From contig NZ_CP034549.1 of assembly GCF_003966335.1 (NCBI RefSeq), positions 810,001 through 842,000 of the forward strand: DNA of 32,000 nt, given 5' to 3'. The notes under the pieces are model-generated. The model ran no database searches. It saw nothing but the letters and a program-made list of their open reading frames with translations, and was not told where the DNA came from. Positions 902-31,320 of the stretch are shown here, piece by piece. Each line of letters begins with the position of its first letter. The stretch's first letter is position 1. This stretch comes from Nonlabens ponticola. GTDB taxonomy: Bacteria > Bacteroidota > Bacteroidia > Flavobacteriales > Flavobacteriaceae. The translations under genes and the position numbers were made by a program.

Positions 902-3251
902 CGCGTGCCGTTTCAATTCGTTTCTTGACCACAATGGCGTCATTAAGAACAAAAGGTGCTGGAATCTCGCCTTCAGGTCTTGGATCGACGGCTAATTCTT
1001 GCGATTGCAGCAGGTCAAAACTTGCTGCATAGACTTCAAATACTGGATCTTCATCCTTTTCAAAAGTAAGTTCCATCACTAATGGTGAACCGTTAGATAC
1101 GTAGTAGGAAATCAATCGGTTACCGCGTCTGCGAGCAAATGGCTTACCGGCATCGTTTACGGGTGCGTTGACACCATTAATTTTGGCTGCATTAAATTGG
1201 AATCGCTTGTCTGCAAAAACTTCCCATCGATCAACGCGATCCTTACTATTCACCACAAGTTTGATTTGTCGTTGATCGCCTATGATGGTATCTACGGTGA
1301 TTTTGGAATTGATCGTTTTTAACGATCTGTACTCTGCTGGCGTTGTATGGCTATATCTACTGGCATATTTTGAATCGATGGTGTTGCCGTCATCTTTGCC
1401 ATCATTTTTTTCAGGATCAATTTTTTCCAGCGTCCAGTCGCTCAAATTGTGGTCATAGGTTGCCCATTGTGCTGTGTTATCATCTGCATTTGCTAGGTAG
1501 ATCAAGCTTGTTTTTTGTGGCTGTGTTGGTGAGAATTCCGCTTTCGCGAAAGCATAACCAGCAAAAGCAAATCCTACAAACAAGGAGATCAAACCTAATA
1601 TGTGCTTCTTGCGATAGTGGCCCAAAACAGGCACCAGCAATCCAAAAATGAGTACGCTGAGCACGGCTGCCACAAAGAGAATCTTCATGCCCAGCGCCAC
1701 GGGAAATCCCTTGATGAATGGAGTGAAAACAAATATCACTGGAGTAGTAAAAATCAAAAGCAACAAATAATTGGGCCTCTTTTTATAGATGTTGAGCCAT
1801 AGCATGATCAATCCAGCAAACAGCGGCACGATGAAAAAGCCTGCACCAGGCAAGTAAGCCGCTGGAATCAAACCGCTCTCACTAACGGGAAACGCTACAA
1901 TAAAACAGATGATCCATAGAAAAACGAGTGGTGCTACACTGTGGCTCGCCACTCGATCCTTATGATAAAACGCATGGTATATAAAGAATGTGATGGCAGT
2001 ACCAATCAATGCCGCCGACGCGATCCAGGCATATCCATTATAGGGAAAAATAGCCGCTTGATCGATGTAGAAATCTGCTGTGGAGATGGCCTGCCAGCCG
2101 TAGTTGACTATTAAATAGCCCAAGATCAGACTACCTAAAAATGGTACAAATCCTACCAATAAATCCTTGAAGCGTAAACGGTTTTTTCTAACACCATAAA
2201 AAATGAGAAAGATCAGAAGTATGCCAGAAACAATAATCAAAATGGGCATCCATGAAAACGGAAAGCTCACCATGTCAATTATAGGTAAAGGGAAATAAAT
2301 ATCATCTGTTCCTGCGGTAGTTTTGAGACCATCGCTTAAATCTGATTTTGCAAAATAGCTAAGCAGCGCCATCAAATAACTGCCTTGATGCGCTAGCGTA
2401 TTGCGATCCAGACGCTCATAACTATCAAGCTGTGAGTGGTAGTCAAAATGGTCACCTATAAAAGCAAAATTGAGTCCGTTGATATCACCTTTCTCACGCA
2501 TCACGGTAAGGTCTGTGTCGTTAGGTAATTTTTTGTAGATGCTGTACGCAAGTGAATTAGCCACTGGATAATTAGTTCCTGCTTCTTTAAAGGCATTGAT
2601 GATCTCCCGATTTCCACCATTCGTTTCCACGAGCATATAGCTAGGGCCGCCGCTACCGCGCGCCTCAAAATTCAAGATCATTTTTGCATCCTTCGCCCAG
2701 CGATGCTTGGTAACAAAAAGATCGGCTCCATTAAGTCCTAGCTCTTCACCATCGGTAATCAGGATGATGATGTCATTTTCTGGCTTGTTGTCGGTGAGAT
2801 ATGCTCTAATTCCCTCGATGATCGTGGCGATGCCTGATGCGGCATCACTTGCGCCCAGACTCGAGTGTGGATCGCTATCATAATGACACATGAGTACGAG
2901 AGCTTCATTGTTGTTTGCGGTTCCTTCTATACGTGCCAGGATATTTACTGGCCTAGATAGATTGCCGTATTTATCAAGGGTAAATCCAGATTGGGTTTCG
3001 GTTTTTAAACCTAGCTTTTCTAACTGCCTGATGATGTAGGTGCGGTTTTTCTCATGTGCTTTACTGCCTAGATAATGAGGTTCTTGTGATAGCTTTTTTA
3101 CATGTACCAACGCTCTTTTAGTTGACCATTCTTTCAGATCCTTTTCTTTTTCCAGTTCACCGCTAGGCGTCTGGCTTGAGAAAGCATACCAGACCATCGC
3201 AATAAGAACAAGAAATGATAAAGCTGAGGTAAAATGTGATTTAGGTCTCAT
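891..3251 (-). CDS. M28 family metallopeptidase with polytopic membrane domain (ERMP1/FXNA-like architecture)
   Basis: 786-aa ORF. It has an N-terminal TM helix and M28 motifs (MCHYDSDPHS..GASDAASG, ILITDGEELGLNGADLF). These are followed by about 9 hydrophobic helices and a C-terminal soluble domain of about 200 aa. Confidence 0.85.
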   Translation of the reverse strand: MRPKSHFTSALSFLVLIAMVWYAFSSQTPSGELEKEKDLKEWSTKRALVHVKKLSQEPHYLGSKAHEKNRTYIIRQLEKLGLKTETQSGFTLDKYGNLSRPVNILARIEGTANNNEALVLMCHYDSDPHSSLGASDAASGIATIIEGIRAYLTDNKPENDIIILITDGEELGLNGADLFVTKHRWAKDAKMILNFEARGSGGPSYMLVETNGGNREIINAFKEAGTNYPVANSLAYSIYKKLPNDTDLTVMREKGDINGLNFAFIGDHFDYHSQLDSYERLDRNTLAHQGSYLMALLSYFAKSDLSDGLKTTAGTDDIYFPLPIIDMVSFPFSWMPILIIVSGILLIFLIFYGVRKNRLRFKDLLVGFVPFLGSLILGYLIVNYGWQAISTADFYIDQAAIFPYNGYAWIASAALIGTAITFFIYHAFYHKDRVASHSVAPLVFLWIICFIVAFPVSESGLIPAAYLPGAGFFIVPLFAGLIMLWLNIYKKRPNYLLLLIFTTPVIFVFTPFIKGFPVALGMKILFVAAVLSVLIFGLLVPVLGHYRKKHILGLISLFVGFAFAGYAFAKAEFSPTQPQKTSLIYLANADDNTAQWATYDHNLSDWTLEKIDPEKNDGKDDGNTIDSKYASRYSHTTPAEYRSLKTINSKITVDTIIGDQRQIKLVVNSKDRVDRWEVFADKRFQFNAAKINGVNAPVNDAGKPFARRRGNRLISYYVSNGSPLVMELTFEKDEDPVFEVYAASFDLLQSQELAVDPRPEGEIPAPFVLNDAIVVKKRIETARDEQ
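1540..1553. repeat. GCTTTCGCGAAAGC palindrome copy 1 (inside M28 peptidase CDS)
   Basis: Exact 14-mer, read on the minus strand as A-F-A-K-A (GYAFAKAEF). Confidence 0.95.
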
Positions 3252-3264
3252 AAAATGGGTTGGT

Positions 3265-3621
3265 TTAGGTATCTCTCTTTACGATAAGGAATTTATCATC
3301 GTCCATAGCGAGATAGCCTTGATCATAAATGAAGTAATAGACAGCGCCTTTTTTGGTTGTATAAATACTGGTAAAGAAATTAAAGTCAAATCCTTTACTA
3401 AGTAGCTTGTTGCGCGTGGTCGTCGTTTTTCCCGATGGATTAATACTTTGCAATGCACGCCAGTTTTTACGCAACCTATTATTGATATTACGCATCAGTG
3501 CGCTGCTATCGCGATTGAGTTTGTTGTTTGCGACATTGCGGCAGTAATCACCGCAAAATCGCTTGTCTGCTCGACCTCTTACTTCGTCACCACATTCTGG
3601 ACACAGGCGCTTGTCTGCCAT
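3265..3621 (-). CDS. small zinc-ribbon-like hypothetical protein
   Basis: 118-aa ORF with an N-terminal CxxC-x12-CxxxC motif (CPECGDEVRGRADKRFCGDYC) followed by a basic segment. It lies 13 nt upstream of the M28 gene on the same strand. No family is recognised. Confidence 0.6.
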   Translation of the reverse strand: MADKRLCPECGDEVRGRADKRFCGDYCRNVANNKLNRDSSALMRNINNRLRKNWRALQSINPSGKTTTTRNKLLSKGFDFNFFTSIYTTKKGAVYYFIYDQGYLAMDDDKFLIVKRDT

Positions 3622-6379: not shown

Positions 6380-6405
6380 TTTGTTAACACGTTTGATGGT
6401 ATTAC

Positions 6406-6419
6406 GCTTTCGCGAAAGC
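6406..6419. repeat. GCTTTCGCGAAAGC palindrome copy 2 (intergenic, 3' of MATE gene)
   Basis: Exact 14-mer with the left extension TTAC, 26 nt after the MATE stop. Confidence 0.95.
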
Positions 6420-6460
6420 AAAATCACCACCACCATCCAACCATAATAAGAAGCCCATCG

Positions 6461-6480: not shown

Positions 6481-6978
6481 ATGTATTACAAACAATTTGA
6501 TGTAAGATGGAGTGATCTGGATGCCAACAGGCATATGGCAAACAGCGCCTACCAGAATTTCATGAGTCACACAAGAATGGCTTACTTGATTGATAATGGA
6601 TTTGGTCAACGTGAGATGCAACAGTATCAAACTGGACCGGTAATCTTCAATGAAAACGTTTATTACTTCAAAGAGATACATCAAGGAAAGCCTATAACGG
6701 TAACTTGTGAATTAACAGGGCTAAGTGATGATGGTTCCCTCTTTAGTTTCAAGCATAATTTTTATGATCACCGCGGCGAGAATCTCGCTCGTGGTATCAT
6801 GACTGGTGCATGGATGAATCTTGTAGAACGTAAGATCATGGCGTTACATCCAGATTTAAAGAAGAAGATTAACGATATGGTAAGGTCACAGGATTTTACC
6901 GAACTAAGTTTTAAGGCCACGAGATCACACGGTCAAAAACCGGTTGCCGTAAATATGGATAATTTGATTACCCGATGA
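6481..6978 (+). CDS. acyl-CoA thioesterase (4HBT/YbgC-like hotdog fold)
   Basis: 165-aa ORF. The N-terminal VRWSDLDANRHMANSAYQNFMSHTRMAYL matches the hotdog thioesterase signature (Asp/His-containing DxDxxxHxxN block). Its stop overlaps the next start (ATGA at 6975-6978). Confidence 0.75.
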   Translation: MYYKQFDVRWSDLDANRHMANSAYQNFMSHTRMAYLIDNGFGQREMQQYQTGPVIFNENVYYFKEIHQGKPITVTCELTGLSDDGSLFSFKHNFYDHRGENLARGIMTGAWMNLVERKIMALHPDLKKKINDMVRSQDFTELSFKATRSHGQKPVAVNMDNLITR

Positions 6979-7424
6979 TCAGCGTTTCAGAAAGTGTTTT
7001 TAAAGACGATATCCTAGAGGTGCTAACCTTTCCATTTGGTAAATTTTACCTATTTAGAAACTTCATAGTTTCAGAAGTTAATGAGGACGTCGTTTTTAGC
7101 AGTAAGCAAGCACAGCTGGTATTAGATGCTTCTTTAGAATTTTATGAAAAGTTGGGTGATCTGAGCAAGAAGGTGTACATAGCTAATAGGATAAATGCTT
7201 ATTCTGTAAAGCCATTGGGCTGGCTTAAATTTACTTTTTTGACTGAAAGGCTATACGGCTATGCCGTGGTGACAAATACTTCAGGCGGTTTTACAAACGC
7301 AATTCTAGAATCAACCTTTGTGCCTGTAGAATTTAAATCTTTTACTGAGTTGGTAGACGCTATTCAATGGGTGGCGATAGTAAACGAAGCGGGTAAATTT
7401 ATCAATAATGACACAAATAATTAA
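6975..7424 (+). CDS. uncharacterised protein, paralog 1 of 3 (inferred STAS/SpoIIAA-like fold)
   Basis: 149-aa ORF. It shares with the next two ORFs the blocks GxFYhF..hVSEh.E.V, YIxNR...YS..P..W, GhAxV, NAhLE..FVP..FK and DAh.W. Confidence 0.7.
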   Translation: MISVSESVFKDDILEVLTFPFGKFYLFRNFIVSEVNEDVVFSSKQAQLVLDASLEFYEKLGDLSKKVYIANRINAYSVKPLGWLKFTFLTERLYGYAVVTNTSGGFTNAILESTFVPVEFKSFTELVDAIQWVAIVNEAGKFINNDTNN

Positions 7425-7466: not shown

Positions 7467-7901
7467 ATGATAGTACCATCCATTAAGGATTCCATTTATT
7501 ATGAAAACGTGATTCGAGAAATTACACTTGAGTGTGGTGATTTTTATTTTTTTGAATCGCATCTAGTGTCTGAAATTCATGAAGGCGTGCTCTTTGGTGG
7601 TGAAGAGGCACTCGATATTTTCAGTGAAGCGATAAGCTTTTACAACGGCACTGATCGTCCCAAACATTTTGTTTATATATCAAATCGTGTAAACGATTAC
7701 TCTCTCAGGCCCGTTGATTGGTTACAATTCAAATTCATGAATCGATTCATGAAGGGATTTGCTACTGTCGATAACCGTCCACGAGCTGCACAAAATGCCA
7801 TGCTGCTGGAAAAATTCGTTCCCAGTAAGTTTAAGTTATTTGCAAATATGTCTGATGCTATGATATGGGCCATTGATATTTATAAATCCTATCATGATTG
7901 A
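7467..7901 (+). CDS. uncharacterised protein, paralog 2 of 3 (inferred STAS/SpoIIAA-like fold)
   Basis: 144-aa ORF, collinear with paralogs 1 and 3 (GDFYFFESHLVSEIHEGV, VYISNRVNDYSLRPVDWL, NAMLLEKFVPSKFKLF, DAMIWA). It has its own TAnnTTTG box upstream. Confidence 0.7.
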   Translation: MIVPSIKDSIYYENVIREITLECGDFYFFESHLVSEIHEGVLFGGEEALDIFSEAISFYNGTDRPKHFVYISNRVNDYSLRPVDWLQFKFMNRFMKGFATVDNRPRAAQNAMLLEKFVPSKFKLFANMSDAMIWAIDIYKSYHD

Positions 7902-7983: not shown

Positions 7984-8418
7984 ATGATTTCTATTCTAGA
8001 TACGCCCTATAAGTCTTTAATCTTGCACACTATATACCTACCCATCGGTAAGCTCTATTTATTAAAAGATTGCGTTGTCTCAGAGCTCTATTTTGAAGTC
8101 ATCGGTACAGCGCAGCACGCCAGCGAGGCATTACAGTTATGTCTTGATTATTATGGCACTTATGATGTGATCAAGAAACGCATCTGGATTGCAAACCGCA
8201 CTCAAAAGTATTCTATACAGCCAGTAGCATGGATACGCCTCAAGAAAGAAGCTACACAGTATTTAAAGGGTTATTGTGTCGTTGATACCACTAAATACGG
8301 TATCATGAATGCGATTCTAGAGTCAAAATTTGTCCCAATCAATTTCAAGAATGCGACTACCCTAGACGAGGCTATGCAATGGACGCAGGAAATAATGAGT
8401 GATCAGGAAAGCGCCTAA
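7984..8418 (+). CDS. uncharacterised protein, paralog 3 of 3 (inferred STAS/SpoIIAA-like fold)
   Basis: 144-aa ORF. By hand alignment it shares about 52 identical positions over about 135 aligned with paralog 1 (GKLYLLKDCVVSEL, IWIANRTQKYSIQPVAWI, NAILESKFVPINFK, EAMQW). Confidence 0.7.
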   Translation: MISILDTPYKSLILHTIYLPIGKLYLLKDCVVSELYFEVIGTAQHASEALQLCLDYYGTYDVIKKRIWIANRTQKYSIQPVAWIRLKKEATQYLKGYCVVDTTKYGIMNAILESKFVPINFKNATTLDEAMQWTQEIMSDQESA

Positions 8419-13826: not shown

Positions 13827-13848
13827 TTACGCTTTCGCGAAAGCGTAA
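13827..13848. repeat. extended 22-bp perfect palindrome TTACGCTTTCGCGAAAGCGTAA, copy 3 (intergenic, 3' of gdhA)
   Basis: Exact 22-bp palindrome (core 13831-13844). It starts 20 nt after the gdhA stop and lies upstream of the canonical terminator. Confidence 0.95.
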
Positions 13849-13859
13849 TCATCAACAAA

Positions 13860-13886
13860 CCCTTGATCACCATCAAGGGTTTTTTT
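13860..13886 (+). terminator. rho-independent terminator of gdhA
   Basis: CCCTTGAT-CACC-ATCAAGGG followed by a run of 7 T residues. Confidence 0.8.
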
Positions 13887-16947: not shown

Positions 16948-19355
16948 GATATAATTTTACTTGCCTTTTCCTATTTCTTTTTGCCTTTATTTCCCAAGCA
17001 CAGCAAGTGCAGGTGGTGAATAATGAGACTGGCGAGCCTATTCCCAATGTAGCTGTTTACAATAAAGAGAAAACAAAGTCTGCCATTGCAGACTTTGATG
17101 GATTTGTAGATCTCATAAAATTTGATGATAAAGAGACGATCTTTTTCCAGACCATGTCTTTCAAAACCTTAAAAAGTAGTAAGCGAGATATTCTTGCTCA
17201 TGGTGATCTGGTCAAGCTCACTCCGGTGTCACAAGGCATGAATCCAGTGGTGATATCAGTCTCTAAGTTTGAGCAGCGCAAACAGGACATACCGCAAAAA
17301 ATAATTTCTACCAGCGCTCAAGAAATTAAATTTAACAACCCACAAACCAGTGCAGATTTACTGCAGCAAACAGGTCAGGTGTATGTGCAAAAATCACAGC
17401 AAGGTGGTGGTAGCCCATTGATACGTGGTTTTTCAACAAATAGATTGCTCATTACGGTAGATGGTGTGCGCATGAATAATGCGACCTTTAGAGGTGGTAA
17501 TTTGCAAAATGTCATAAGCATCGATCCACTATGTGTCGAACGTACTGAGATTATTCTAGGTCCAGGCAGCGTTGTATATGGTAGTGATGCTATAGGTGGC
17601 GTCATGAATTTTTACACGCAGTCGCCAGTCTTTGCGACTGATAGCATCACAAACTTTGCAGGTAACGCCTTGTTACGATATGCCACCGCAAATAATGAGA
17701 ATACCGCACACCTAGATTTTAAATATGGAACGCAGCGATTTGCCAGTGCGACAAGCATCAGTTTTAATTCCTATGGCGATCTACATATGGGATCAAATGG
17801 ACCTGATGAATATTTGAGAAATCAATATGTCGTGCGCCGCGATGATGAGGATTTACTAGTAGATAATAGCGACCCACAACGCCAGATTCCTACTGGTTTT
17901 GATCAGCTCAACCTGTTGCAAAAATTCTCTTACAAGCCCAGCAGCGACTGGCAACTGGACGCAGGATTGATTTACACGCAAACCTCTGATTATAGCAGGT
18001 ATGATGCGTTGATACGCTTTCGCGAAAGCGGAAACCCCATAAGTGCCCAATGGTATTATGGACCTCAACGCTGGTTAATGCTTAATGCAAGAGCCACCCA
18101 TCGTGGTAATGGTAGATTATATGATAAAGCGATCATCACACAGGCTTATCAAAAATTCAATGAGAGCCGCAACAATCGTGATTTTCAAGATGTAGAGTTA
18201 TTTGAGAATGATGAGCAGGTAGATGCTCTTACAACGGCTATAGATTTTGAACGACGCAATCGAGAGAATAATGTCCTATTCTATGGAGCAGAATACGTGT
18301 ATAACAAGGTAGGCAGTGAAGGCAGTATTTTTGACATAGAAACAGGTAATAGACGCGCAGCTGCCAGTAGATATCCAGATGGATCAACATGGGAATCGCT
18401 AGCTGCTTATGTGAGTTATCAATGGAGAATCGAGGAAAATCTCACCTTACAATCTGGAGCACGATACAACCACATCTGGATTGACGCTCAATTTGATGAT
18501 GAATTCTTTGACTTTCCTTTTAGTGAAGCGACTGTAAATACAGGCGCACTTACCGGTGCGATAGGTGCAACTTATCTGCCTGATCCATCATGGGAACTGC
18601 GAGCAAATTTGAGTACAGCCTTTCGTGCGCCTAATATTGATGATATAGGTAAAATCTTTGATCCTAGTCCTGGCACGGTAGTCGTTCCCAATCCAGATGT
18701 GGATTCTGAGTATTCTTATAATACAGAGCTAGGTGTTAAAAAACGAGTAGGCGATCAATTGACTATTGAGGTCGCGGGATATTATACGTTGCTAGATGAT
18801 GCATTGGTGGCTCGTGATTTTGAGCTCAATGGTGAGGATCAAATCATCTATCAAGGAGAATTGAGTCAGGTGCAAGCCATTCAAAATGCAGAGCGTGCGA
18901 TGATCTACGGCGTTGAGATAGGAATGGATTACAAACTCAATGATGAGTGGAATCTGTACGGTCATTACACTTGGCTGGATGGCGAGCAGGAAGAAGAAGA
19001 CGGCACCACGGTTGCCGTGCGTCACGTGGCACCAGCTTTTGGCGATTTTCATGTAGTTTATGATCACGATAGATTTAAGGCAGATGCCTTTGTTTTATTC
19101 AACGGTCAGTTTGATTTTAATGAATTGGCGCCTAGCCAGCAGGATAGGCCGTATTTGTATGCGCAGGATGAGAATGGCAATCCATTCTCGCCATCATGGT
19201 ACACGCTTAATTTGCGATCTAGATATGAGATTAACAAGGCATTGAGTGTTAATGCTACCCTTGAAAATATCACAGACCAGCGCTATCGCACCTATTCATC
19301 TGGAATAGCAGCGGCTGGTAGAAACTTAATTTTGGCACTTGATTATTCTTTTTAA
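16944..19355 (+). CDS. TonB-dependent receptor (CarboxypepD_reg N-domain; plug motif reminiscent of heme/hemoglobin-type receptors)
   Basis: TTG start overlapping the recO stop (TTGA). It has a signal peptide, then a plug region (GGGSPLIRGFSTNRLLITVDGVRMNN..GPGSVVYGSDAIGG), a long beta-barrel and a terminal F. The substrate class is a low-confidence recollection. Confidence 0.85.
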   Translation: MRYNFTCLFLFLFAFISQAQQVQVVNNETGEPIPNVAVYNKEKTKSAIADFDGFVDLIKFDDKETIFFQTMSFKTLKSSKRDILAHGDLVKLTPVSQGMNPVVISVSKFEQRKQDIPQKIISTSAQEIKFNNPQTSADLLQQTGQVYVQKSQQGGGSPLIRGFSTNRLLITVDGVRMNNATFRGGNLQNVISIDPLCVERTEIILGPGSVVYGSDAIGGVMNFYTQSPVFATDSITNFAGNALLRYATANNENTAHLDFKYGTQRFASATSISFNSYGDLHMGSNGPDEYLRNQYVVRRDDEDLLVDNSDPQRQIPTGFDQLNLLQKFSYKPSSDWQLDAGLIYTQTSDYSRYDALIRFRESGNPISAQWYYGPQRWLMLNARATHRGNGRLYDKAIITQAYQKFNESRNNRDFQDVELFENDEQVDALTTAIDFERRNRENNVLFYGAEYVYNKVGSEGSIFDIETGNRRAAASRYPDGSTWESLAAYVSYQWRIEENLTLQSGARYNHIWIDAQFDDEFFDFPFSEATVNTGALTGAIGATYLPDPSWELRANLSTAFRAPNIDDIGKIFDPSPGTVVVPNPDVDSEYSYNTELGVKKRVGDQLTIEVAGYYTLLDDALVARDFELNGEDQIIYQGELSQVQAIQNAERAMIYGVEIGMDYKLNDEWNLYGHYTWLDGEQEEEDGTTVAVRHVAPAFGDFHVVYDHDRFKADAFVLFNGQFDFNELAPSQQDRPYLYAQDENGNPFSPSWYTLNLRSRYEINKALSVNATLENITDQRYRTYSSGIAAAGRNLILALDYSF
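18016..18029. repeat. GCTTTCGCGAAAGC palindrome copy 4 (inside TBDR CDS)
   Basis: Exact 14-mer, read in a different frame as R-F-R-E-S (LIRFRESGN). Confidence 0.95.
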
Positions 19356-19360: not shown

Positions 19361-19996
19361 GTGAGTCTAGACGTCGTTCTACATAATCAACATTTTAAAC
19401 TACACCCATCAGGAGCTTGTTATTGGGTAGAGCAAGATGTTGTTCTTTTGGCAGATGTTCATCTGGGAAAAAGCGCTCACTTCCGTAAGAATGGGATGGC
19501 CATACCATCTACCGCAGACGACGCAGAGTATGACAAGCTCAATGAGGTTATTGATTACTTCAAGCCATCGCGACTATTTTTTCTGGGCGACTTGTTTCAT
19601 TCCTACATCAATGCAGAGTGGCACTTTTTTGAACAATGGGTGCGTATGCAATCCATCGAGATCGTGCTAGTAATGGGTAATCACGATGTCATCTCGCGTG
19701 AAAAATTTAATCAAATAGGAATAGCAACCCACGACGTGTTACAAATGGGGTCCATCTATTTAACACACCATCCAGAGGAGCAAGACGGGTATTTTAATAT
19801 TGCAGGACACGTACATCCAGCGGTAAAACTTACAGGAGTAGGCAGGCAGCGTATGAAGATACCATGCTTTTTCACTACAGATACAGGCATGATTATACCA
19901 GCATTTGGTGATTTTACAGGCACACATGTGCTCAAACCACAAAAGGGAAATCGCATATTTGGTTGTGTGCCAGACGATGTCATCGAGTTGTCATAA
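19361..19996 (+). CDS. pdeM: ligase-associated DNA damage response endonuclease PdeM-type metallophosphoesterase
   Basis: GTG start 5 nt after the TBDR stop. Contains LLADVHLGKSAHFRKNGMAIP, FLGDLFHS and MGNHD, the calcineurin-like phosphoesterase motifs in the PdeM arrangement. Confidence 0.75.
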   Translation: MSLDVVLHNQHFKLHPSGACYWVEQDVVLLADVHLGKSAHFRKNGMAIPSTADDAEYDKLNEVIDYFKPSRLFFLGDLFHSYINAEWHFFEQWVRMQSIEIVLVMGNHDVISREKFNQIGIATHDVLQMGSIYLTHHPEEQDGYFNIAGHVHPAVKLTGVGRQRMKIPCFFTTDTGMIIPAFGDFTGTHVLKPQKGNRIFGCVPDDVIELS

Positions 19997-20025
19997 ATTG
20001 CAGCGATTATTCTTACCCAACCATC

Positions 20026-20850
20026 ATGTTAAAAAAGATCGCGAGTATTCTCAATTTGATCAGCATCATTGTGCTGATTGCTTGGAACGGATATGCCAAT
20101 TCTGGAAATTTCAACGGTAATACGGTAGGCGATCTAAGTGCAGAATATAGCAACCTGTTCACGCCAGCGAGTTATGCCTTTGCAATATGGGGTTTGATTT
20201 TCTTGATGCTATTGGTTTTTGGGGTGTATGGTGTGTATTACGCTTTCGCGAAAGCTACCTCACTCAAACCGAGAGCCTATCGCACCAACTTTGTGGTATC
20301 AACAGCGCCGTGGTTCTTACTGGCAAATATCTGTTGTACGGCATGGGTAGGCTTCTGGCTGGAAGAAATGATAGGAATATCGGTACTACTCATGGTCGGT
20401 ATACTGGTTTTCTTGCTTTTGTGTGTGCGCAGCATTGATATGGAATTATGGGATGCGCCGTTTCCACTAATCGCATTTGTGTGGTGGCCGCTGTGCCTTT
20501 ATACAGGCTGGATAAGTGTCGCAATTATTGCAAACGTCGCGAGTTACCTTAATGAAATCATGGAATTTACTAGAGATCAGGAAATTTATATCACCATCGC
20601 GATGGTAGTGGTTGCTGCTGTAATTAATATTCTCATGGTGTGGTATCGCAACATGCGCGAGTACGCTAGTGTAGGCGTGTGGGCACTTGTCGCCATTTAT
20701 GTCCGTCACAAAGATGAGGTAGAATTGATAAGCTATGTAGCGATAGCGGCAGCCGCGATTCTATTAGTGAATATCATGTGGCATGGATACCTCAATCGTC
20801 ACACAAATCCATTTATCAAATACAAACAGTATAGAGCGAGTAAAGCTTAA
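20026..20850 (+). CDS. tryptophan-rich polytopic membrane protein (TspO/MBR-related, tentative)
   Basis: ORF 19963..20850; I prefer ATG 20026 (MLKKIASILNLISIIVLIAW), which removes the overlap with pdeM. It has about 7-8 hydrophobic helices, is W-rich, and contains LFTPASYAFAIWGLIFL. Confidence 0.65.
   Translation: MLKKIASILNLISIIVLIAWNGYANSGNFNGNTVGDLSAEYSNLFTPASYAFAIWGLIFLMLLVFGVYGVYYAFAKATSLKPRAYRTNFVVSTAPWFLLANICCTAWVGFWLEEMIGISVLLMVGILVFLLLCVRSIDMELWDAPFPLIAFVWWPLCLYTGWISVAIIANVASYLNEIMEFTRDQEIYITIAMVVVAAVINILMVWYRNMREYASVGVWALVAIYVRHKDEVELISYVAIAAAAILLVNIMWHGYLNRHTNPFIKYKQYRASKA
20242..20255. repeat. GCTTTCGCGAAAGC palindrome copy 5 (inside Trp-rich membrane protein CDS)
   Basis: Exact 14-mer with the left extension TTAC, read as YYAFAKATS. 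Confidence 0.95.
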
Positions 20851-22285: not shown

Positions 22286-25200
22286 TTGGCTTACACAGAT
22301 ATTCTCCAGTCATATTCTCATTTACCACAAACCCAACAATTGCTGGATCATCTAGCGCAGGATCACGGTGCGATTCAAGTAGCTGGTCTCACTGGTAGTG
22401 CGTTATCGATTGAGTTGCAAACCTTATTTGAGCAAAGCGACAAGCCTTTTTTACTTATATGCAACGACAAGGAAGAAGCCGCCTATTATCTCAACGATCT
22501 AGAAAAAATGATAGGCGAGGAACGTGTGCTGTTTTATCCAGGAAGCTATCGACGACCTTACCAGATTGAGGAAACAGATAATGCCAATGTCCTTTTAAGG
22601 GCTGAGGTGCTCAACCGAATCAATTCAAAACGCAAGCCAGCGGTTATTGTTACATATCCAGACGCATTGTTTGAAAAGGTAGTCACGCGCAAGGAATTGG
22701 AGAAAAACACGCTCAAGATTGCCGTTGGTGATCAAATAAGCATTGATTTTGCAAACGAGGTGCTGTTTGAATATGCCTTCAAGCGCGTCGATTTTGTGAC
22801 AGAACCTGGTGAATTCTCATTGCGCGGTGGTATCCTCGATGTGTTCTCATTTTCTAATGAAGAGCCTTATCGTATAGAGTTTTTTGGCAACGAGATTGAT
22901 AGCATACGCATCTTTGATGTGGAGACACAACTGTCTAAAGATCAGATTAAAAAGATATCCATAATTCCTAATGTGGAGAACAAGAAGTCTGATGAGCGAC
23001 GTGAGAGTTTCTTGAAATACTTGTCAAGTAAGACGGTTGTATTTGCCCAACATCTTGATTTGATGTATGCTCGTGTTGATTCGCTTTTCGCGAAAGCGGA
23101 ACAAGCCTACCAAAAACTTGATGGTGGCATTAAGCAATTAACTCCAGACGAGATTTTCTGCAAGTCGGCCTTGCTTAAGAAGCAATTGGAGAAATACACG
23201 ACAGTTGAATTTACCGGTAGCGACCCAGCTGTGCGATTCAGCACCAGCCCGCAACCATCTTTCAATAAGCAGTTTGATATATTGGTGGACACGCTGCGAG
23301 AAAATGAGAAACGTGGATTCAAGACTTATCTGCTGTGCGGTACTGCACAGCAAGCAAAGCGTTTCAAGGACATTTTTGACGACATGAATGCGCAGGTTTC
23401 CTATGAAACGGTGACCATGACATTGTATAAAGGATTTGTAGATGCAGATTTAAAAATCGCTTGTTACACAGATCATGAGATTTTTGATCGTTATCATAAG
23501 TTCCACTTGAAGAATGGCTATGCCAAAAAGCAAGCCATCACGCTCAAGGAACTCAATACGCTGGTCATAGGTGATTATGTTACGCATATTGATCACGGTA
23601 TAGGGAAATTTGGTGGACTCCAAAAGATCGATGTCAACGGCAAGATGCAGGAAGCTATCAAGCTGTTTTATGGCGAGCGCGATATTTTATATGTCTCGAT
23701 TCACTCGCTACATAAGATCACGAGATATGCTGGTAAAGACGGCAAGACGCCTAAGATCTACAAGCTAGGTAGTCCAGCCTGGAAAAAACTAAAAGCCAAA
23801 ACCAAGACTAAGGTCAAGCAAATTGCTTTTGACCTGATCAAATTATATGCAAAGCGACGCGCTCGCAAAGGGTTTCAATACGAGCCAGATGGTTATTTGC
23901 AAAATGAGCTAGAGGCTAGTTTTATTTATGAGGATACACCAGATCAAAGTGCAGCGACACAAGATGTAAAAAATGACATGGAAAGCGATCGTCCCATGGA
24001 TCGATTGGTCTGTGGTGATGTAGGATTCGGTAAGACTGAAGTTGCCATACGTGCTGCGTTTAAGGCTGCGGTGAGTGGCAAACAAGTTGCTGTGCTCGTG
24101 CCAACAACTGTTCTAGCTTTTCAGCATGCCAAGACTTTTAAGGAGCGCCTTGCCGACATGCCAGTTACGGTAGATTATTTGAATCGTTTCCGTACGGCAA
24201 AGGAGCGTCGCACGGTACTTGAAGGACTTGAAAACGGAACCATCGATATCGTGATAGGCACTCACCAGCTGGTCAATAAGTCGGTTAAGTTTAAAGACAT
24301 AGGACTGTTGATTATCGATGAGGAGCAAAAATTTGGAGTTGCAGTAAAAGATAAGCTCAAAACCTTAAAGGAAAACATTGACACGCTCACGCTTACTGCT
24401 ACGCCTATACCGCGTACGCTGCAATTCTCATTAATGGCCGCACGTGATTTGAGCGTTATAAAAACGCCACCACCCAATCGTCACCCTATTGAGTCTCGCG
24501 TGGTACGATTTTCTGAAGAAGTGATACGTGACGCGGTAAGCTATGAGATTTCCCGTGGTGGTCAGGTATTTTTTGTCCACAATCGTATTGAGAACATTAA
24601 GGAAGTAGCAGGTATGATCCAGCGATCTGTTCCAGATGCTAAGGTAGGTATAGGTCACGGTCAGATGGATGGAAAAAAGCTGGAAGAATTGATGCTGGCT
24701 TTTATGAATAATGAGTTTGACGTACTGGTAAGTACCACCATCATTGAGAGTGGTCTTGACGTGCCTAATGCGAATACCATCTTCATCAATAACGCCAATA
24801 ACTTTGGACTATCAGACCTGCATCAAATGCGTGGTCGAGTGGGCCGCAGTAATAAAAAGGCCTTTTGTTATTTCATCACGCCACCATATGATATGATGAC
24901 TGATGATGCTCGCAAAAGAATCCAAGCAATTGAGAATTTCTCTGAGTTGGGTAGTGGTTTCAACATCGCCATGAAAGATCTTGAGATACGTGGTGCTGGA
25001 GATATTTTGGGTGGCGAGCAAAGTGGTTTCATGAATGAGATAGGATTTGATACCTATCAAAAAATCCTGAGCGAAGCCATAGAAGAGCTCAAGGAAAATG
25101 AGTTCAAAGAACTCTATCCTACGGATGAGATCAAGACCAAACATGTAAGCGATGTCACGATTGATACAGATTTTGAATTATTGTTCCCAGATGATTACAT

Positions 25201-25630
25201 CAACAGTGTTACAGAGCGTCTTGCATTGTACTCAAAACTCAATGAGGTAGATGATCAGCTGCAATTAACGCAGTACCGCAAGGAATTGGTAGACCGTTTT
25301 GGTGAACTGCCAGACCAGGCGGAAGATCTGTTGACCAGCATCAAGATCAAGTGGATCGCCAGTCGCATAGGTCTGGAAAAGATCGTGATGAAGCAAGGCA
25401 AGTTCATAGGTTACTTTATCGCAGATCAGTCGAGCAGTTTTTACCAGACAGAGACCTTCAGCTATCTATTGCAAGCAGTGAACAGCAGTGGCAAAACTAT
25501 GCAGCTAAAAGAAAAGCAAACCAGGTCAGGATTGCGATTGTTACTCAAGATGGAGCAATGTAAAAGTGTAGATCAAGCATTAGCAAACCTAGATAAGATA
25601 TTGCCTGTTGAAGAGATCGTAAGCACTTAG
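22286..25630 (+). CDS. mfd: transcription-repair coupling factor
   Basis: 1114 aa. Has a UvrB-homology N-terminus, a CarD/RID domain (GDYVTHIDHGIGKF) and helicase motifs (GDVGFGKTEVA, DEEQKFG, LTATPIPRT, QMRGRVGRS). TTG 22286 is the only TTG/ATG/GTG start in frame after the upstream stop. Confidence 0.95.
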   Translation: MAYTDILQSYSHLPQTQQLLDHLAQDHGAIQVAGLTGSALSIELQTLFEQSDKPFLLICNDKEEAAYYLNDLEKMIGEERVLFYPGSYRRPYQIEETDNANVLLRAEVLNRINSKRKPAVIVTYPDALFEKVVTRKELEKNTLKIAVGDQISIDFANEVLFEYAFKRVDFVTEPGEFSLRGGILDVFSFSNEEPYRIEFFGNEIDSIRIFDVETQLSKDQIKKISIIPNVENKKSDERRESFLKYLSSKTVVFAQHLDLMYARVDSLFAKAEQAYQKLDGGIKQLTPDEIFCKSALLKKQLEKYTTVEFTGSDPAVRFSTSPQPSFNKQFDILVDTLRENEKRGFKTYLLCGTAQQAKRFKDIFDDMNAQVSYETVTMTLYKGFVDADLKIACYTDHEIFDRYHKFHLKNGYAKKQAITLKELNTLVIGDYVTHIDHGIGKFGGLQKIDVNGKMQEAIKLFYGERDILYVSIHSLHKITRYAGKDGKTPKIYKLGSPAWKKLKAKTKTKVKQIAFDLIKLYAKRRARKGFQYEPDGYLQNELEASFIYEDTPDQSAATQDVKNDMESDRPMDRLVCGDVGFGKTEVAIRAAFKAAVSGKQVAVLVPTTVLAFQHAKTFKERLADMPVTVDYLNRFRTAKERRTVLEGLENGTIDIVIGTHQLVNKSVKFKDIGLLIIDEEQKFGVAVKDKLKTLKENIDTLTLTATPIPRTLQFSLMAARDLSVIKTPPPNRHPIESRVVRFSEEVIRDAVSYEISRGGQVFFVHNRIENIKEVAGMIQRSVPDAKVGIGHGQMDGKKLEELMLAFMNNEFDVLVSTTIIESGLDVPNANTIFINNANNFGLSDLHQMRGRVGRSNKKAFCYFITPPYDMMTDDARKRIQAIENFSELGSGFNIAMKDLEIRGAGDILGGEQSGFMNEIGFDTYQKILSEAIEELKENEFKELYPTDEIKTKHVSDVTIDTDFELLFPDDYINSVTERLALYSKLNEVDDQLQLTQYRKELVDRFGELPDQAEDLLTSIKIKWIASRIGLEKIVMKQGKFIGYFIADQSSSFYQTETFSYLLQAVNSSGKTMQLKEKQTRSGLRLLLKMEQCKSVDQALANLDKILPVEEIVST
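23083..23097. repeat. near-copy GCTTTTCGCGAAAGC (one extra T) inside mfd
   Basis: 15-mer differing from the core by one inserted T, read as SLFAKAE. Confidence 0.8.
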
Positions 25631-25709
25631 TAGATGGCTATGAAGCCACTTGCAGTAATCTTATTATTCCTATGGGCTGTTATAAAAGATAAAGTCGTTT
25701 GAGTTTTTG

Positions 25710-25723
25710 CTTTCGCGAAAGCG
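25710..25723. repeat. GCTTTCGCGAAAGC palindrome copy 7 (intergenic, between convergent mfd and membrane-protein genes)
   Basis: Exact 14-mer with the right extension GTAA, 13 nt from the minus-strand gene's stop. Confidence 0.95.
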
Positions 25724-26217: not shown

Positions 26218-26220
26218 GCC

Positions 26221-26258: not shown

Positions 26259-26282
26259 AAATATGATAATAAGTGCTTAATT

Positions 26283-29564: not shown

Positions 29565-29592
29565 CGTTAAAATGATTTGAGTTTTGATGCTG

Positions 29593-29600
29593 CAAAAGTA
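29593..29600 (-). promoter_or_regulatory. candidate -7 promoter box (TAnnTTTG)
   Basis: The minus strand reads TACTTTTG, 28 nt upstream of ATG 29564. Confidence 0.35.
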
Positions 29601-29682
29601 CTCGCTTAAAAAGCATCCCAACATTAAGCTATCATTAATTAACGCTTAACTTTTCAACTATAACTATTTGATAAATAAGATA

Positions 29683-31320
29683 TTACCTATTAACGGAATA
29701 AAACTTGTTTAACAGCGCGGTGGTTGACGCATCATGACCGTCAGACTTACTTGTCTCAATGTCATTTAAAATGGTATCTGCTAGTTTTTTTCCCAGCTCC
29801 ACGCCCCATTGATCATAGCTGTAAACGTTCCAAATAATACCTTCAACAAATATCTTGTGCTCGTACATGGCCACCAATTTTCCTAGACTCGCAGGAGTAA
29901 GCTCATCAATCATGATGGTGGTAGTAGGCCTGTTACCTGGGAACACCTTAAACGGTAACAGTTTACTTATCTCATCAGCTGTTTTGCCAGATTCTTTTAA
30001 ATCTTCACGGGCTTCCTCTCTGGTCTTTCCGTTCATGAGCGCCTCAGTCTGCGCGATAAAGTTTGCGATGAGTTTATTATGGTGATCAGGTTGTTGGTAT
30101 TTTGCTTTCGCGAAAGCTATAAAATGAGCCGGTATCAACTTTGTTCCCTGATGTATCAATTGGAAAAAAGCATGTTGCGAGTTGGTTCCTGGTTCACCCC
30201 AAACAATGTTGCCTGTTTCATAATTTATAGGAATACCATCACGAGAAATGCTCTTACCATTACTCTCCATTATAGCTTGTTGCAAGTAGGCCGGTAATTC
30301 CTTTAAGTACTGGGTGTAAGGTATGATGGCCTCGCTCTGGGCTTTAAAGAAATTGTTATACCAGATGGTGAGTAGTGCCAGTTGCACCGGTATATTATCG
30401 CGGAATTCCGCATCTTTAAAATGCTCATCCATGGCATGTGCGCCATTCAATAAATGCTGGAAATTGCTGGTGCCAACGCCCAACGCGACAGACATTCCTA
30501 CTGTGCTCCACAAGGAGAAACGGCCGCCTACCCAATCAAACATCGGGAAAATATTGTCCTGTGCCACGCCAAATTCTACCGCACGATCCACATTACTGCT
30601 CACGGCGATAAAATGCTTGCCTACTGCATCTTCATTCACTTGTTCTTTAAACCAGTTGCGTATTGTAGTAGCATTAGTCAACGTTTCCTGCGTGCCAAAA
30701 GATTTTGAAACAATCACAAACAGCGTTGTTGCTGGATCGATTTTTTTAAGGGTTTCCATCACGTGGTCACCTTCTACATTTGACACAAAGTGCAGTTTAA
30801 GATCGTTGTGATATGCCTCAAGTGCCTGGTATATCATCACGGGTCCTAGATCGCTGCCTCCTATACCTATATTGACAATAGTGTCAAACTTTTCACCATT
30901 GGCAGCGGTTATTTCACCTGTAAGTACTTGATCTACATAAGTGAACATTTTCTCACGACTGGCTTGTGCGTCTTTTACATAAGACTTAATGTTAGAATCT
31001 GCCTTTTCCAATGGCGTGCGCAATGCGGTATGCAGCACTTCACGACCTTCAGTCGAATTAATTTTTTCTCCATCAAAATATGATTGGATAGCCTCATCGA
31101 GCTTGCACTCATTTGCAAGGTCAATCAGTACCTCACGCGTAGCTGGCGTGATGAGGTTTTTAGAAAGATCTACATAAAAATCCTCAAACTCAATGGTAAA
31201 TTCCTGAGCTCTATCGGGACTATTTTTAAAGGCTTCTTTTAGATCAAACTTCTTAAGATTGTCATAGTGCGCCTTTAGGCTGTTCCATGCGTTGGTGGTA
31301 GTTGGGTCTATATTTTTCAT
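29683..31320 (-). CDS. pgi: glucose-6-phosphate isomerase
   Basis: The ORF extends to 31485, but Pgi homology begins at ATG 31320 (MKNIDPTTTNAWNSLKAHYD). Contains IGIGGSDLGP, SKSFGTQETL, GGRFSLWS and ESNGK. The ATG overlaps the upstream TGA (ATGA). Confidence 0.95.
   Translation of the reverse strand: MKNIDPTTTNAWNSLKAHYDNLKKFDLKEAFKNSPDRAQEFTIEFEDFYVDLSKNLITPATREVLIDLANECKLDEAIQSYFDGEKINSTEGREVLHTALRTPLEKADSNIKSYVKDAQASREKMFTYVDQVLTGEITAANGEKFDTIVNIGIGGSDLGPVMIYQALEAYHNDLKLHFVSNVEGDHVMETLKKIDPATTLFVIVSKSFGTQETLTNATTIRNWFKEQVNEDAVGKHFIAVSSNVDRAVEFGVAQDNIFPMFDWVGGRFSLWSTVGMSVALGVGTSNFQHLLNGAHAMDEHFKDAEFRDNIPVQLALLTIWYNNFFKAQSEAIIPYTQYLKELPAYLQQAIMESNGKSISRDGIPINYETGNIVWGEPGTNSQHAFFQLIHQGTKLIPAHFIAFAKAKYQQPDHHNKLIANFIAQTEALMNGKTREEAREDLKESGKTADEISKLLPFKVFPGNRPTTTIMIDELTPASLGKLVAMYEHKIFVEGIIWNVYSYDQWGVELGKKLADTILNDIETSKSDGHDASTTALLNKFYSVNR
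30104..30117. repeat. GCTTTCGCGAAAGC palindrome copy 8 (inside pgi CDS)
   Basis: Exact 14-mer, read on the minus strand as FIAFAKAKY. Confidence 0.95.

Follow-up and report, generated by a model that had tools for sequence, protein, structure and literature searches.

The DNA analysed here is a 32-kb window of the Nonlabens ponticola chromosome with ordinary housekeeping gene content, in which the word GCTTTCGCGAAAGC stands in seven exact copies and one conserved variant (Table 1). As an earlier note on this DNA had stated, three of the copies stand in spacers and the other five within unrelated ORFs, and they are neither tandem nor CRISPR-like; the copy that it had placed at 25710-25723 belongs at 25709-25722. 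The 14-bp palindrome described in the note is real, but the full palindrome is longer: the true unit is the perfect 16-bp palindrome CGCTTTCGCGAAAGCG, of which the 14-mer is the core, and the -1/+1 positions of the 14-mer are C/G in ~83% of half-sites. The variant in mfd has one extra T, or two mismatches if read at 23084-23097, with its left half-site degenerate and its right half-site intact. A terminator-like hairpin with a T-run at 13860-13886 is separate from the neighbouring 22-bp palindrome.

Table 1. Copies of the iterated word in the 32-kb window and their settings
Feature	Position	Setting	Frame, peptide or composition
Exact copy	1540-1553	M28 peptidase gene 891-3251, minus strand	Frame 0, AFAKA
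Exact copy	6406-6419	Spacer between MatE transporter gene end (6379) and thioesterase gene start (6481)	TTAC flank
Whole-unit example	6381-6444		~25 nt C-poor G/T-rich arm, palindrome, ~25 nt G-poor A/C-rich arm
Exact copy (core from 13831), full 22-bp palindrome	13827-13848	Glutamate dehydrogenase/PorZ spacer	TTAC-GCTTTCGCGAAAGC-GTAA
Exact copy	18016-18029	TonB-dependent receptor gene 16944-19355, plus strand	Frame 1, RFRES
Exact copy	20242-20255	295-aa membrane protein gene 19963-20850, plus strand	Frame 0, AFAKA
Variant GCTTTTCGCGAAAGC	23083-23097	mfd 22286-25630, plus strand	LFAKA
Exact copy	25709-25722	Convergent spacer, mfd/150-aa ORF	
Exact copy	30104-30117	pgi, minus strand, true gene 545 aa	Frame 0, AFAKA

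The copies are far beyond chance, as had been claimed. With Markov models of orders 1, 3 and 5, for whose training the copies in the window were masked, the expectation for GCTTTCGCGAAAGC was 1e-4, 8e-6 and 4e-7 copies per 32 kb, respectively (about 1e-4 or fewer in all cases), in comparison to the seven found, and at most 0.01 copies in a 2.87-Mb genome. Dinucleotide shuffles of the window yielded 0.09 matches at two mismatches or fewer, and eight or more were reached in 0 of 100. Near-misses were scarce, with 19 exact, 1 one-mismatch and 4 two-mismatch occurrences in the window and two regions fetched by gene. The note had recognised no named element, and a search of 8 million full texts indeed found neither the 14-mer nor its 12-mer core; nor did the literature searched hold a prior description of CGCTTTCGCGAAAGCG or of such a genome-wide signal in the phylum.

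A scan of 185,579 species genomes for the 14-mer returned at least 120 8-kb blocks, none of those listed coming from N. ponticola. Among the matches listed, 85 blocks came from Nonlabens, Dokdonia or unnamed Flavobacteriaceae with one to three copies each, and 29 came from outside the Flavobacteriaceae with one copy each, as predicted by chance. A zero-truncated Poisson fit to the 8-kb blocks among the matches listed, which sample many genomes at random, gave a density of one copy per 5.6-8 kb, which indirectly bears out the earlier extrapolation to hundreds of copies per genome. The two regions fetched by gene, each including the shared pgi site, held 5 copies in 21.6 kb for N. dokdonensis and 7 copies in 21.6 kb for another lineage; Nonlabens, Dokdonia and related MAGs have the word about once per 3-8 kb. 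Block positions were found all round complete chromosomes, for example at 0.88, 1.38, 2.15 and 2.82 of 3.37 Mb in Dokdonia R86516. Lineage specificity, raised in the note as a matter to check, was also observed: neither the syntenic locus in Salegentibacter nor the Bizionia and Aquimarina-like loci had a copy at two mismatches or fewer, or an alternative iterated word. CGCTTTCGCGAAAGCG, with the 14-mer as its core, is a clade-specific, chromosome-wide iterated DNA word.

The distance between copies is typically 2-7 kb and rarely less than 1 kb, with one gap below 1 kb in comparison to 16.3 expected and 0 of 5000 simulations as extreme. The ~8% of DNA that is non-coding contains 35% of the copies and ORFs contain ~65%, a split close to that published for USS, and the ORF copies use all three frames (AFAKA, RFRES and LSRK). 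In a recurrent phage that has portal and capsid genes, the word occurs three times in 12 kb; lytic phages are without the word, and prophage-like DNA has it.

PGI and the M28 peptidase align to outgroups without gaps at the motif site, where the outgroup residues in place of AFAKA are GFKES and AHFNS, respectively. AFAKA was present in 41 of 44 Nonlabens orthologs of the M28 peptidase, the other genera having AHFNS-type residues of the same length, and in 61 of 65 Nonlabens-type PGI sequences; the exact word encodes 56 of 57 AFAKA peptides. The word therefore replaces resident sequence by substitution with length unchanged, and not by mobile insertion. It is kept at orthologous positions throughout the genus. 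Identity was 14/14 at orthologous sites in six independent pairs in which the surrounding DNA was 67-80% identical, and at one such site the local amino-acid identity was just 36%. N. dokdonensis and a lineage with a 63%-identical PGI both match the pgi site at 14/14 positions, and the TonB-dependent receptor site was 14/14 identical in strain BBFL7 (HSP identity 67%), where the ortholog of the 295-aa membrane protein carries the one-mismatch form GCTTTCGCGAAAGT. Even the mfd variant recurs, identical and at the same codon (~266), in N. dokdonensis mfd. The note had remarked neither on the substitution without insertion nor on this retention at orthologous sites, the over-dispersed spacing or the long arms.

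The conserved context extends beyond the ~4 nt per side allowed by the note, for which the C/G preference adjoining the 14-mer and a composition signal of ~20-30 nt per side have to be substituted. A profile over 148 copies showed that on each strand CGCTTTCGCGAAAGCG is preceded by about 20-25 nt of C-poor, G/T-rich DNA, and hence followed by A/C-rich DNA. The frequency of C in the 5' flank is 8% in comparison to 19% background, for non-coding copies and each of the three frames alike; the skew is gone by about -30 and was not found at seven control palindromes. TGTTG, GTGGT and TGTGG are enriched in the flanks, and at the protein level one arm appears as V/C/G/F/L and the other as P/T/Q/K/N/H residues. 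Flank triplets vary by species (TAC, CTC, ATC) in a manner that resembles DUS dialects, the numbers being small.

In behaviour, the word comes closest to HIP1 and DUS/USS, as the note had proposed. Similar to CGCTTTCGCGAAAGCG, HIP1 of cyanobacteria (GCGATCGC, with extended HIPs) is a perfect and hugely over-represented palindrome which occupies both ORFs and spacers with non-random spacing, has palindromic extensions that vary by genome (PMC4390886), and is of debated function, transformation/Chi-like and nucleoid roles having been proposed for HIP1. It is also conserved at orthologous sites (PMC5861425), which argues for selection on HIP1 and CGCTTTCGCGAAAGCG alike. The key differences are that HIP1 has another sequence in another phylum, is 8 bp in comparison to 16 bp, and is over-represented 15-300-fold in comparison to roughly 1e5-fold, while CGCTTTCGCGAAAGCG is ~ten times sparser, one-off variants common for HIP1 are nearly absent, and no cognate methyltransferase is known for it, unlike HIP1. 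Long strand-asymmetric G/T and A/C arms distinguish CGCTTTCGCGAAAGCG; we met no such description for HIP1. DUS/USS are likewise clade-specific words in hundreds to thousands of copies, with spacer enrichment, coding copies that show frame bias and characteristic peptides, orthologous positions common to related species, even spacing, weaker flank preferences around a strict core, possible dialects, and absence from a lytic phage of the host. In comparison to them, CGCTTTCGCGAAAGCG is palindromic, longer, ~4-6 times sparser and has very few mismatched relatives, and Nonlabens and Dokdonia are not known to be competent, unlike DUS/USS hosts. Flavobacteriaceae are generally not known to have the type IV pilus receptors to which DUS bind.

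Two further systems share some features. Chi sites have a density of the same order (~one per several kb), lie mostly in genes and are species-specific, but they are 5-8 nt, asymmetric, replication-oriented and few-fold over-represented, and a 16-bp palindrome is outside known RecBCD/AddAB recognition. The NTS/SRM repeats of the Ssn GIY-YIG single-strand nucleases (Neisseria and others) have a palindrome core and hundreds of copies and modulate transformation (PMC11893778), but the relation fails on an unrelated sequence (ATTCCC-N8-GGGAAT), a loop and oriented non-palindromic flanks; they are also gene-clustered in described cases, unlike CGCTTTCGCGAAAGCG.

We infer, as the best reading, that the word is recognised by a symmetric, dimeric protein and maintained copy by copy, because it is long, exact and symmetric, without hairpin covariation or a link to transcription signals. 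A putative symmetric sequence-specific protein would recognise CGCTTTCGCGAAAGCG on DNA, and every copy would be upheld by selection or molecular drive. Neisseriaceae have DUS, and Pasteurellaceae USS, as self tags in uptake, a role that recent preprints suggest for HIP1 as well, and by analogy with them and with HIP1 we tentatively favour, at somewhat less than even confidence, a 'self' DNA tag for uptake or recombination. A single tag per few-kb fragment might be enough for recognition, and this would account for the evenness of the spacing. The G/T-rich arms could give 3' single-stranded tails of RecA-preferred composition on both sides of the core, a Chi-like help; the composition preference of RecA matches the G/T-rich context. 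Riemerella columbina, of the same family, is competent and prefers its own DNA (PMC7965970), and HIP1 raises transformation and may act Chi-like (bioRxiv 10.1101/2024.09.10.611283; 10.64898/2026.06.24.733823). Known uptake sequences, however, are 9-12 nt and non-palindromic with common one-mismatch relatives, and the length, symmetry and near-miss scarcity of CGCTTTCGCGAAAGCG suit a binding site under strong selection no less than they suit drive. The three copies in the 12-kb phage are not readily explained by uptake drive unless it is a long-resident prophage.

Less probable is an array of high-affinity sites for a chromosome-organising or nucleoid-associated protein, whose regular spacing would structure or partition the chromosome. 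The perfect dimer-type palindrome, the footprint-like composition signal of ~60-70 bp, the strong avoidance of short spacings, strict purifying selection on every site with very few near-misses, and sites all round the chromosome are consistent with it, as is a prophage-like element at host-like density, as if filling a gap in the array; Xu et al. drew nucleoid structure from the same kind of evidence for HIP1 (PMC5861425). Against it, no such protein is known in Bacteroidota, the strand-asymmetric G/T and A/C arms indicate no obvious duplex-binding preference, no exclusion from or enrichment in an ori/ter domain was seen among mapped blocks, which are too few, and known site-specific organisers have tens of sites per genome in comparison to several hundred, Noc, SlmA and MatP sites being ~ten times sparser. 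The parS/Noc sites of the ParB family are also 14-16-bp perfect palindromes with TTTC...GAAA, but identity with them fails on half-site geometry (TTTC-N4-GAAA in comparison to TTTC-N2-GAAA in CGCTTTCGCGAAAGCG), on the match to parS when centred (3/8 half-site positions), and on number (a handful to tens per genome in comparison to several hundred chromosome-wide).

For HIP1, Elhai reportedly proposed biased correction. A corresponding origin of CGCTTTCGCGAAAGCG, as product or target of an orphan methyltransferase, nicking enzyme or Vsr-like short-patch repair that recognises the word or its TCGCGA/CGCG core and restores and spreads it by biased correction, appears improbable. The palindrome does include TCGCGA and CGCG, which are type II-like sites; the abundance of HIP1 varies together with CGATCG methyltransferases (PMC4390886), and the word is missing from lytic phages, whose stay in the cell is short, and present in prophage-like DNA. 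Short-patch repair fixes near-cognate sequences only, however, and with ~0.01 exact copies and few one-mismatch 14-mers expected per genome it cannot seed hundreds. Neither avoidance nor enrichment of TCGCGA and CGCG is seen outside the word, and the note's hint that they point to restriction-modification is supported in neither direction. The arms, the even spacing and site retention predating species divergence are left without account.

Insertion of a miniature mobile element into genes and spacers, as with REP/RAYT, MITEs or Rickettsia palindromic elements, is very unlikely. In its favour, the copies are dispersed and palindromic, a 2.2-kb N. dokdonensis gene stands between two copies where N. 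ponticola has one, and lineage-specific sites lie in indel-prone loops. Length constancy of conserved proteins at the sites, 65% of copies in ORFs, where a 14-bp/16-bp unit is unable to insert in frame, and retention at orthologous positions largely refute it. Terminal repeats and target duplications are absent, as is a transposase from the window, and arm complementarity (4.54 pairs in comparison to 4.49 in the control) shows nothing beyond consensus. REP/BIME elements are short dispersed palindromes too, but REPs are extragenic, imperfect, RAYT-mobilised and carry compensatory changes, none of which holds for CGCTTTCGCGAAAGCG; the note had already set the word apart from classical intergenic REPs and MITEs.

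An RNA hairpin acting as terminator, 3'-end stabiliser or regulatory stem-loop is more doubtful still. The 22-mer at 13827 can form a 9-bp stem with a 4-nt loop (DNA hairpin -7.3 kcal/mol), and 3/3 intergenic copies of the window stand shortly after stop codons. Over 47 non-coding copies, however, tandem, divergent and convergent spacers account for 64%, 23% and 13% in comparison to base-pair shares of 65%, 23% and 13%, and no terminator or promoter bias of copies was found; the 3' flank is A/C-rich and not U-rich, compensatory variation is absent, two thirds of copies lie in ORFs in either orientation, and no Rfam family matches the window. An artefact of assembly, adapters or contamination, the first two of which the note had named as a threat, would be suggested only by the exactness of the copies. 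It is refuted, because conserved proteins have the word in frame and because it recurs at orthologous sites in protein databases and in dozens of assemblies, of isolates and MAGs, made independently by many laboratories; the probability of such an artefact is negligible.

In a phylum for which no report of such a system was found, CGCTTTCGCGAAAGCG behaves as a HIP1/DUS-like genome-wide DNA signal in marine Flavobacteriaceae.

Direct scanning of the window showed that the seven exact copies and one variant of the 14-bp palindromic core reported in an earlier note, made from the sequence alone, are all present; six of the positions given there were correct, and the copy placed at 25710 was one base off. 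The agreement extends to the claim that these copies are not due to chance, as dinucleotide-shuffled sequence gave only 0.09 matches when up to 2 mismatches were allowed. With the copies masked, the window served to train Markov models of order 1 to 5, and these predicted between 1e-4 and 4e-7 copies for the window and no more than 0.01 for a genome. It was the only long word found to be repeated in the window, with three copies in spacers and five in unrelated ORFs, as the note had described. The window otherwise carries standard chromosomal genes (M28 peptidase, ferrochelatase, MatE, thioesterase, EamA, ArsC, DinB, a cystathionine-type enzyme, glutamate dehydrogenase, PorZ, RecO, two TonB-dependent receptors, Mfd, disulphide oxidoreductase, PGI and M23 peptidase). 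The encoded PGI and M28 peptidase match the N. ponticola proteins at 100% identity. No transposase, RAYT (IS200-like TnpA), restriction-modification, competence or cognate receptor gene was found within the window, and an Rfam search of the window returned no match. In addition, the window contains three tandem paralogous ORFs of 144 to 149 aa with 31% to 34% mutual identity and no Pfam match. The mechanically called pgi ORF encodes 600 aa in comparison to 545 aa for the database protein; about 55 codons at its start extend it upstream in frame and lie outside the gene.

Locations of the copies of the word and of other features in the window and in the fetched N. dokdonensis locus (L001)
Feature	Sequence	Position	Strand or context	Basis
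Exact copies of the core	GCTTTCGCGAAAGC	window, starts 1540, 6406, 13831, 18016, 20242, 25709, 30104	palindrome, both strands	direct scan
Variant copy	GCTTTTCGCGAAAGC	window 23083-23097	in mfd	direct scan
Variant copy, N. dokdonensis counterpart	GCTTTTCGCGAAAGC	L001 20328-20342	same codon of mfd	
Three tandem paralogous ORFs		window 6975-7424, 7467-7901, 7984-8418		
Terminator-like hairpin	CCCTTGAT-cacc-ATCAAGGG, then T-run	window 13860-13886	16 nt past the motif copy downstream of the glutamate dehydrogenase gene	
Mechanical pgi ORF		window 29683-31485	minus	
BNR/T9SS-tail gene (2.2 kb)		L001 15557-17752	between a 146-aa gene and mfd	
Single copy at the corresponding N. ponticola junction		window 25709-25722		

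To describe the word itself, 148 copies were compared. Position -1/+1 was C/G in approximately 83% of half-sites, which indicates a palindrome of 16 bp, and T was found at positions -3 and -4 in most copies. The earlier estimate that conservation extends about 4 nt beyond the core therefore does not hold, since the palindrome is 16 bp and the composition signal runs much further. On each strand the 5' flank contains 2% to 11% C in comparison to a background of 18.6%, with G and T increased and A decreased, and the 3' flank is its mirror image, G-poor and A/C-rich. This signal reaches about position -18 and is gone by -30; beyond the core there is no fixed sequence, and the words TGTTG, TTGTG, GTGGT and TGTGG are enriched. 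The skew was seen with unsymmetrised data in non-coding copies and in each of the three reading frames, and none was seen around seven control palindromes from the same DNA. C-to-T deamination of resected tails was considered as its cause and set aside as less likely, given that G is also enriched, A is depleted and the signal is over by about 30 nt. The skew is more likely an effect of recognition or selection than a mutational footprint. The three bases beside the core are mostly TAC in N. ponticola and Dokdonia, CTC or TCC in N. dokdonensis (L001, L011) and ATC in L242, a metagenome-assembled lineage; with only 6 to 18 half-sites per genome, these differences possibly resemble the dialects of DUS.

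The distribution of the word was determined by a scan of one genome per species in 185,579 species, which gave at least 120 8-kb blocks containing it. Among the blocks listed, 24 were from Nonlabens, 33 from Dokdonia and 28 from MAGs of equally low G+C entered as unnamed Flavobacteriaceae or as "uncultured bacterium", with one to three copies apiece. The 29 listed blocks from outside the Flavobacteriaceae carried one copy each and had a mean G+C of 58%, and for these reasons are taken as chance matches; other Flavobacteriaceae genera contributed six of the listed blocks. Two genomes labelled "uncultured Aquimarina sp." (L072, position 7055; L111, positions 157 and 1090) have one conserved copy in common, and a second copy in one of them has as its counterpart in the other a 5-mismatch sequence of equal length. 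The range of the motif may thus be wider than Nonlabens and Dokdonia, or the labels of these bins may be wrong. Within related Flavobacteriaceae, the word proved lineage-specific: no copy was found at up to 2 mismatches in the syntenic locus of Salegentibacter salinarum (UvrC to PGI, with the same gene order) or in the M28 loci of Bizionia and an Aquimarina-like genome, and about 22 kb from each of these three yielded no other iterated 11- to 14-mers or dialects.

Blocks listed from the complete chromosome of Dokdonia R86516 lie at 0.88, 1.38, 2.15 and 2.82 of 3.37 Mb and those of BBFL7 at 0.14, 1.15 and 2.11 of 2.40 Mb, a scatter and not an origin-proximal cluster. A zero-truncated Poisson fit to the listed blocks, the only correction applied to a sample that was picked for containing the word and holds no N. 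ponticola block, gave a density of one copy per 5.6 to 8 kb. Regions fetched by gene contained 5 exact copies in 21.6 kb for N. dokdonensis and 7 in 21.6 kb for the MAG whose PGI is only 63% identical, both including the shared pgi site. The overall density is about one per 3 to 8 kb, and from the block and gene-fetched densities several hundred copies per genome is a reasonable extrapolation.

The copies are also more evenly spaced than expected. Only 1 of 62 gaps between neighbouring copies was shorter than 1 kb, in comparison to 16.3 expected, and 10 of 62 were shorter than 2 kb, in comparison to 29.5 expected; none of 5000 simulations was as extreme. The coefficient of variation of the gaps was 0.40 in the window and 0.32 in N. 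dokdonensis, in comparison to 1 for random placement. Gaps of 561 and 1144 bp occur in the denser L242 lineage.

With respect to genes, which in the fetched loci were called by long-ORF heuristics, 98 of 149 copies fall within long ORFs and about 35% outside, an approximately four-fold enrichment in non-coding DNA, which makes up about 8% of the sequence. Frame 0, encoding AFAKA, accounts for 37% of the 149 copies, frame 1 (RFRES) for 15% and frame 2 (LSRK) for 13%. In 200,000 ORF residues, 56 of 57 AFAKA peptides were encoded by the exact word and the remaining one by a one-mismatch form, so the peptide is a by-product of the DNA word. The 47 classifiable non-coding copies were distributed over tandem, divergent and convergent spacers at 64%, 23% and 13%, in comparison to base-pair shares of 65%, 23% and 13%, which leaves no link to terminators or promoters.

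Comparison of orthologs showed how the word is laid over existing sequence. The Nonlabens PGI segment FIAFAKAKYQQPDHH corresponds, with no gap in the alignment, to F[IL]GFKESLHQDK[DEN]HH in Salegentibacter and others, and AFAKA is found in 61 of 65 Nonlabens-type PGIs, with three others carrying the one-nucleotide decay form AFAKT. In the M28 peptidase, AFAKA is present in 41 of 44 Nonlabens orthologs (identity down to 50%), and other genera have AHFNS or AHLKS at the same position with no gap. Residues upstream of this site are rich in V, C, G, F and L (G/T codons) and those downstream in P, T, Q and K (A/C codons), so that the arms shape the protein as well. Among orthologous DNA pairs, six independent pairs were identical at 14 of 14 positions within surroundings of 67% to 80% identity, one such site being in a region of only 36% amino-acid identity; a further pair had a single mismatch, and another had 5 mismatches and no indel. 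Copies are accordingly common to the species of the clade, including at orthologous positions, and lineage-specific sites fall in variable, indel-prone loops. Near-misses are rare, with 19 exact, 1 one-mismatch and 4 two-mismatch sites in the window and two gene-fetched regions. The orthologous conservation, the few near-misses and the graded arms together show that each copy is kept by selection or directional drive, which acts more weakly on some 20 to 25 flanking bases too. The mfd variant is identical at the same codon in N. ponticola and N. dokdonensis, and is therefore a half-degenerate site of some age that has been retained, not one that decayed recently.

Several known classes of repeat could be set aside. 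Tandem and CRISPR arrays, which the note had already discounted, and an artefact are excluded or very unlikely, and its doubt about a REP or MITE identity was well placed, since REP/BIME, MITE and RPE readings fare no better. Copies of REP/BIME are extragenic, imperfect palindromes and show compensatory stem changes; here 98 of 149 are in long ORFs, and the arms of one copy are no more self-complementary (4.54 of 12 positions) than those of a cross-copy control (4.49), so no hairpin is kept by compensatory change. Insertion of a MITE or a Rickettsia palindromic element is opposed by the gapless PGI and M28 sites and by one presence/absence pair without an indel. At first sight the TTTC...GAAA shape is ParB-like; however, the word is TTTC-N2-GAAA in comparison to TTTC-N4-GAAA of the TGTTTCACGTGAAACA type, only 3 of 8 half-site positions match once the palindromes are centred, and parS/Noc sites number from a few to tens, with parS near the origin, unlike a word found every 3 to 8 kb in blocks all round the chromosomes. 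The Ssn NTS/SRM repeat is an ATTCCC-N8-GGGAAT hairpin with oriented flanks, and the word differs in sequence, has no loop and has symmetric flanks; in motif, orientation and distribution the Ssn/NTS repeats (PMC11893778) offer an analogy only.

An intrinsic terminator does not agree with the A/C-rich 3' flank or with non-coding copies that track spacer proportions, and an RNA hairpin element does not agree with the lack of covariation, Rfam match and spacer-class bias. The bare 22-mer folds at -7.3 kcal/mol as DNA, and nothing indicates that folding is a selected property. Downstream of the glutamate dehydrogenase gene a separate hairpin with a T-run follows the motif, which is thus not the terminator there. 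As for a possible cassette, the BNR/T9SS-tail gene of N. dokdonensis is bracketed by two copies, and N. ponticola has a single copy and no such gene at that junction; this one case may be a hint that DNA between copies has been gained or lost, and at two other places where gene content differs the junctions had no copies. What remains after these exclusions is that the word is read as DNA, and its length, exactness and two-fold symmetry point to a putative dimeric, sequence-specific reader protein.

The likeness to HIP1 and to the uptake sequences DUS and USS suggested in the note was supported by the clade specificity, the coding/non-coding split and the orthologous retention. As with DUS and USS, the copies are near-identical, number in the hundreds by extrapolation, occupy coding and non-coding DNA, and are restricted to one clade whose species have them in common. 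Frame bias, characteristic peptides, even spacing, weaker flank preferences and possible species dialects are further features that the word shares with the class comprising DUS, USS and HIP1. HIP1 is likewise a palindrome of very high abundance, whose conservation inside ORFs and between them implies selection, but it is GCGATCGC or a derivative and belongs to cyanobacteria, while the word has another sequence and a Bacteroidota host. For HIP1, selection and a nucleoid role have been argued (PMC5861425), transformation was reported to rise strongly in a methylation-dependent way, with a Chi-like component (preprint 10.1101/2024.09.10.611283), and its abundance co-evolves with type IV secretion system proteins, which the authors linked to DNA uptake (preprint 10.64898/2026.06.24.733823). 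Within the Flavobacteriaceae, the only precedent found is Riemerella columbina, which is competent and prefers its own DNA (PMC7965970); no literature on methylomes or competence in Dokdonia and Nonlabens was found.

Based on the match to this class, the HIP1 transformation data and the competence of R. columbina, we tentatively rank first the reading that the word may be a self-DNA tag for uptake or recombination. The spacing would be accounted for if each few-kb fragment had a single tag, and the G/T-rich arms would supply 3' tails of the composition preferred by RecA on either side of the core. A more complete version, which is somewhat doubtful, holds that a 16-bp palindromic "self" word with G/T-rich recombinogenic arms on both sides marks the chromosomes of Nonlabens, Dokdonia and allied marine Flavobacteriaceae, and that a dedicated dimeric reader recognises it in uptake and/or recombination. 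A serious rival, on present evidence unlikely, is a regularly spaced array of binding sites for a chromosome-organising protein, which accounts for the scarcity of degenerate copies no less well than a self-DNA tag does. An origin driven by repair or methylation is improbable, as it cannot seed 16-mers and leaves the arms and the spacing unexplained; in HIP1, orphan methyltransferases recognise the inner part of the palindrome.

Phage sequences were also compared. The closely related lytic Nonlabens phages P12024S and P12024L (35.7 kb each) have no copy at up to 2 mismatches, for which P is 0.0004 to 0.011 at host density. Some IMG/VR contigs have several copies, and a recurrent phage type with portal, capsid and connector genes (L210, L235, L238) has 3 copies in 12 kb, inside its own genes and at host-like density. 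The reading of the word as a general property of DNA living in these cells was set aside; the phage evidence is mixed and does not separate the hypotheses.

Neither the 14-mer nor its 12-mer core occurs in the full-text literature searched, and no iterated palindromes or uptake sequences were found in the literature for Bacteroidota, Dokdonia or Nonlabens. The word differs from known iterated words in its phylum, its length of 16 bp, its lack of degenerate copies and its strand-asymmetric arms. Few lineages are known to have genome-wide iterated words of which each copy is maintained (DUS, USS, HIP1), and what these words do is debated; an independent and unusually clean example from a different phylum, 16 bp long, with few degenerate copies, strong spacing and arms that dictate neighbouring amino acids, provides a new system for asking what such words do. 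The word is also a taxon marker with which sequences can be binned and phages assigned to hosts, and it may help to build better genetic tools in this group, as methylated HIP1 has in Synechococcus. If a specific reader exists, the word is a direct handle for finding that protein where no such system has been described. Should the "self" word proposal be true, Bacteroidota would have their first sequence conferring specificity on uptake or recombination, the longest known of its class, and it would be evidence of sequence-selective genetic exchange in abundant marine heterotrophs. Dokdonia is a model proteorhodopsin photoheterotroph, and the word could reveal sequence-selective gene exchange or a new chromosome-organising principle in these ecologically important marine bacteria.
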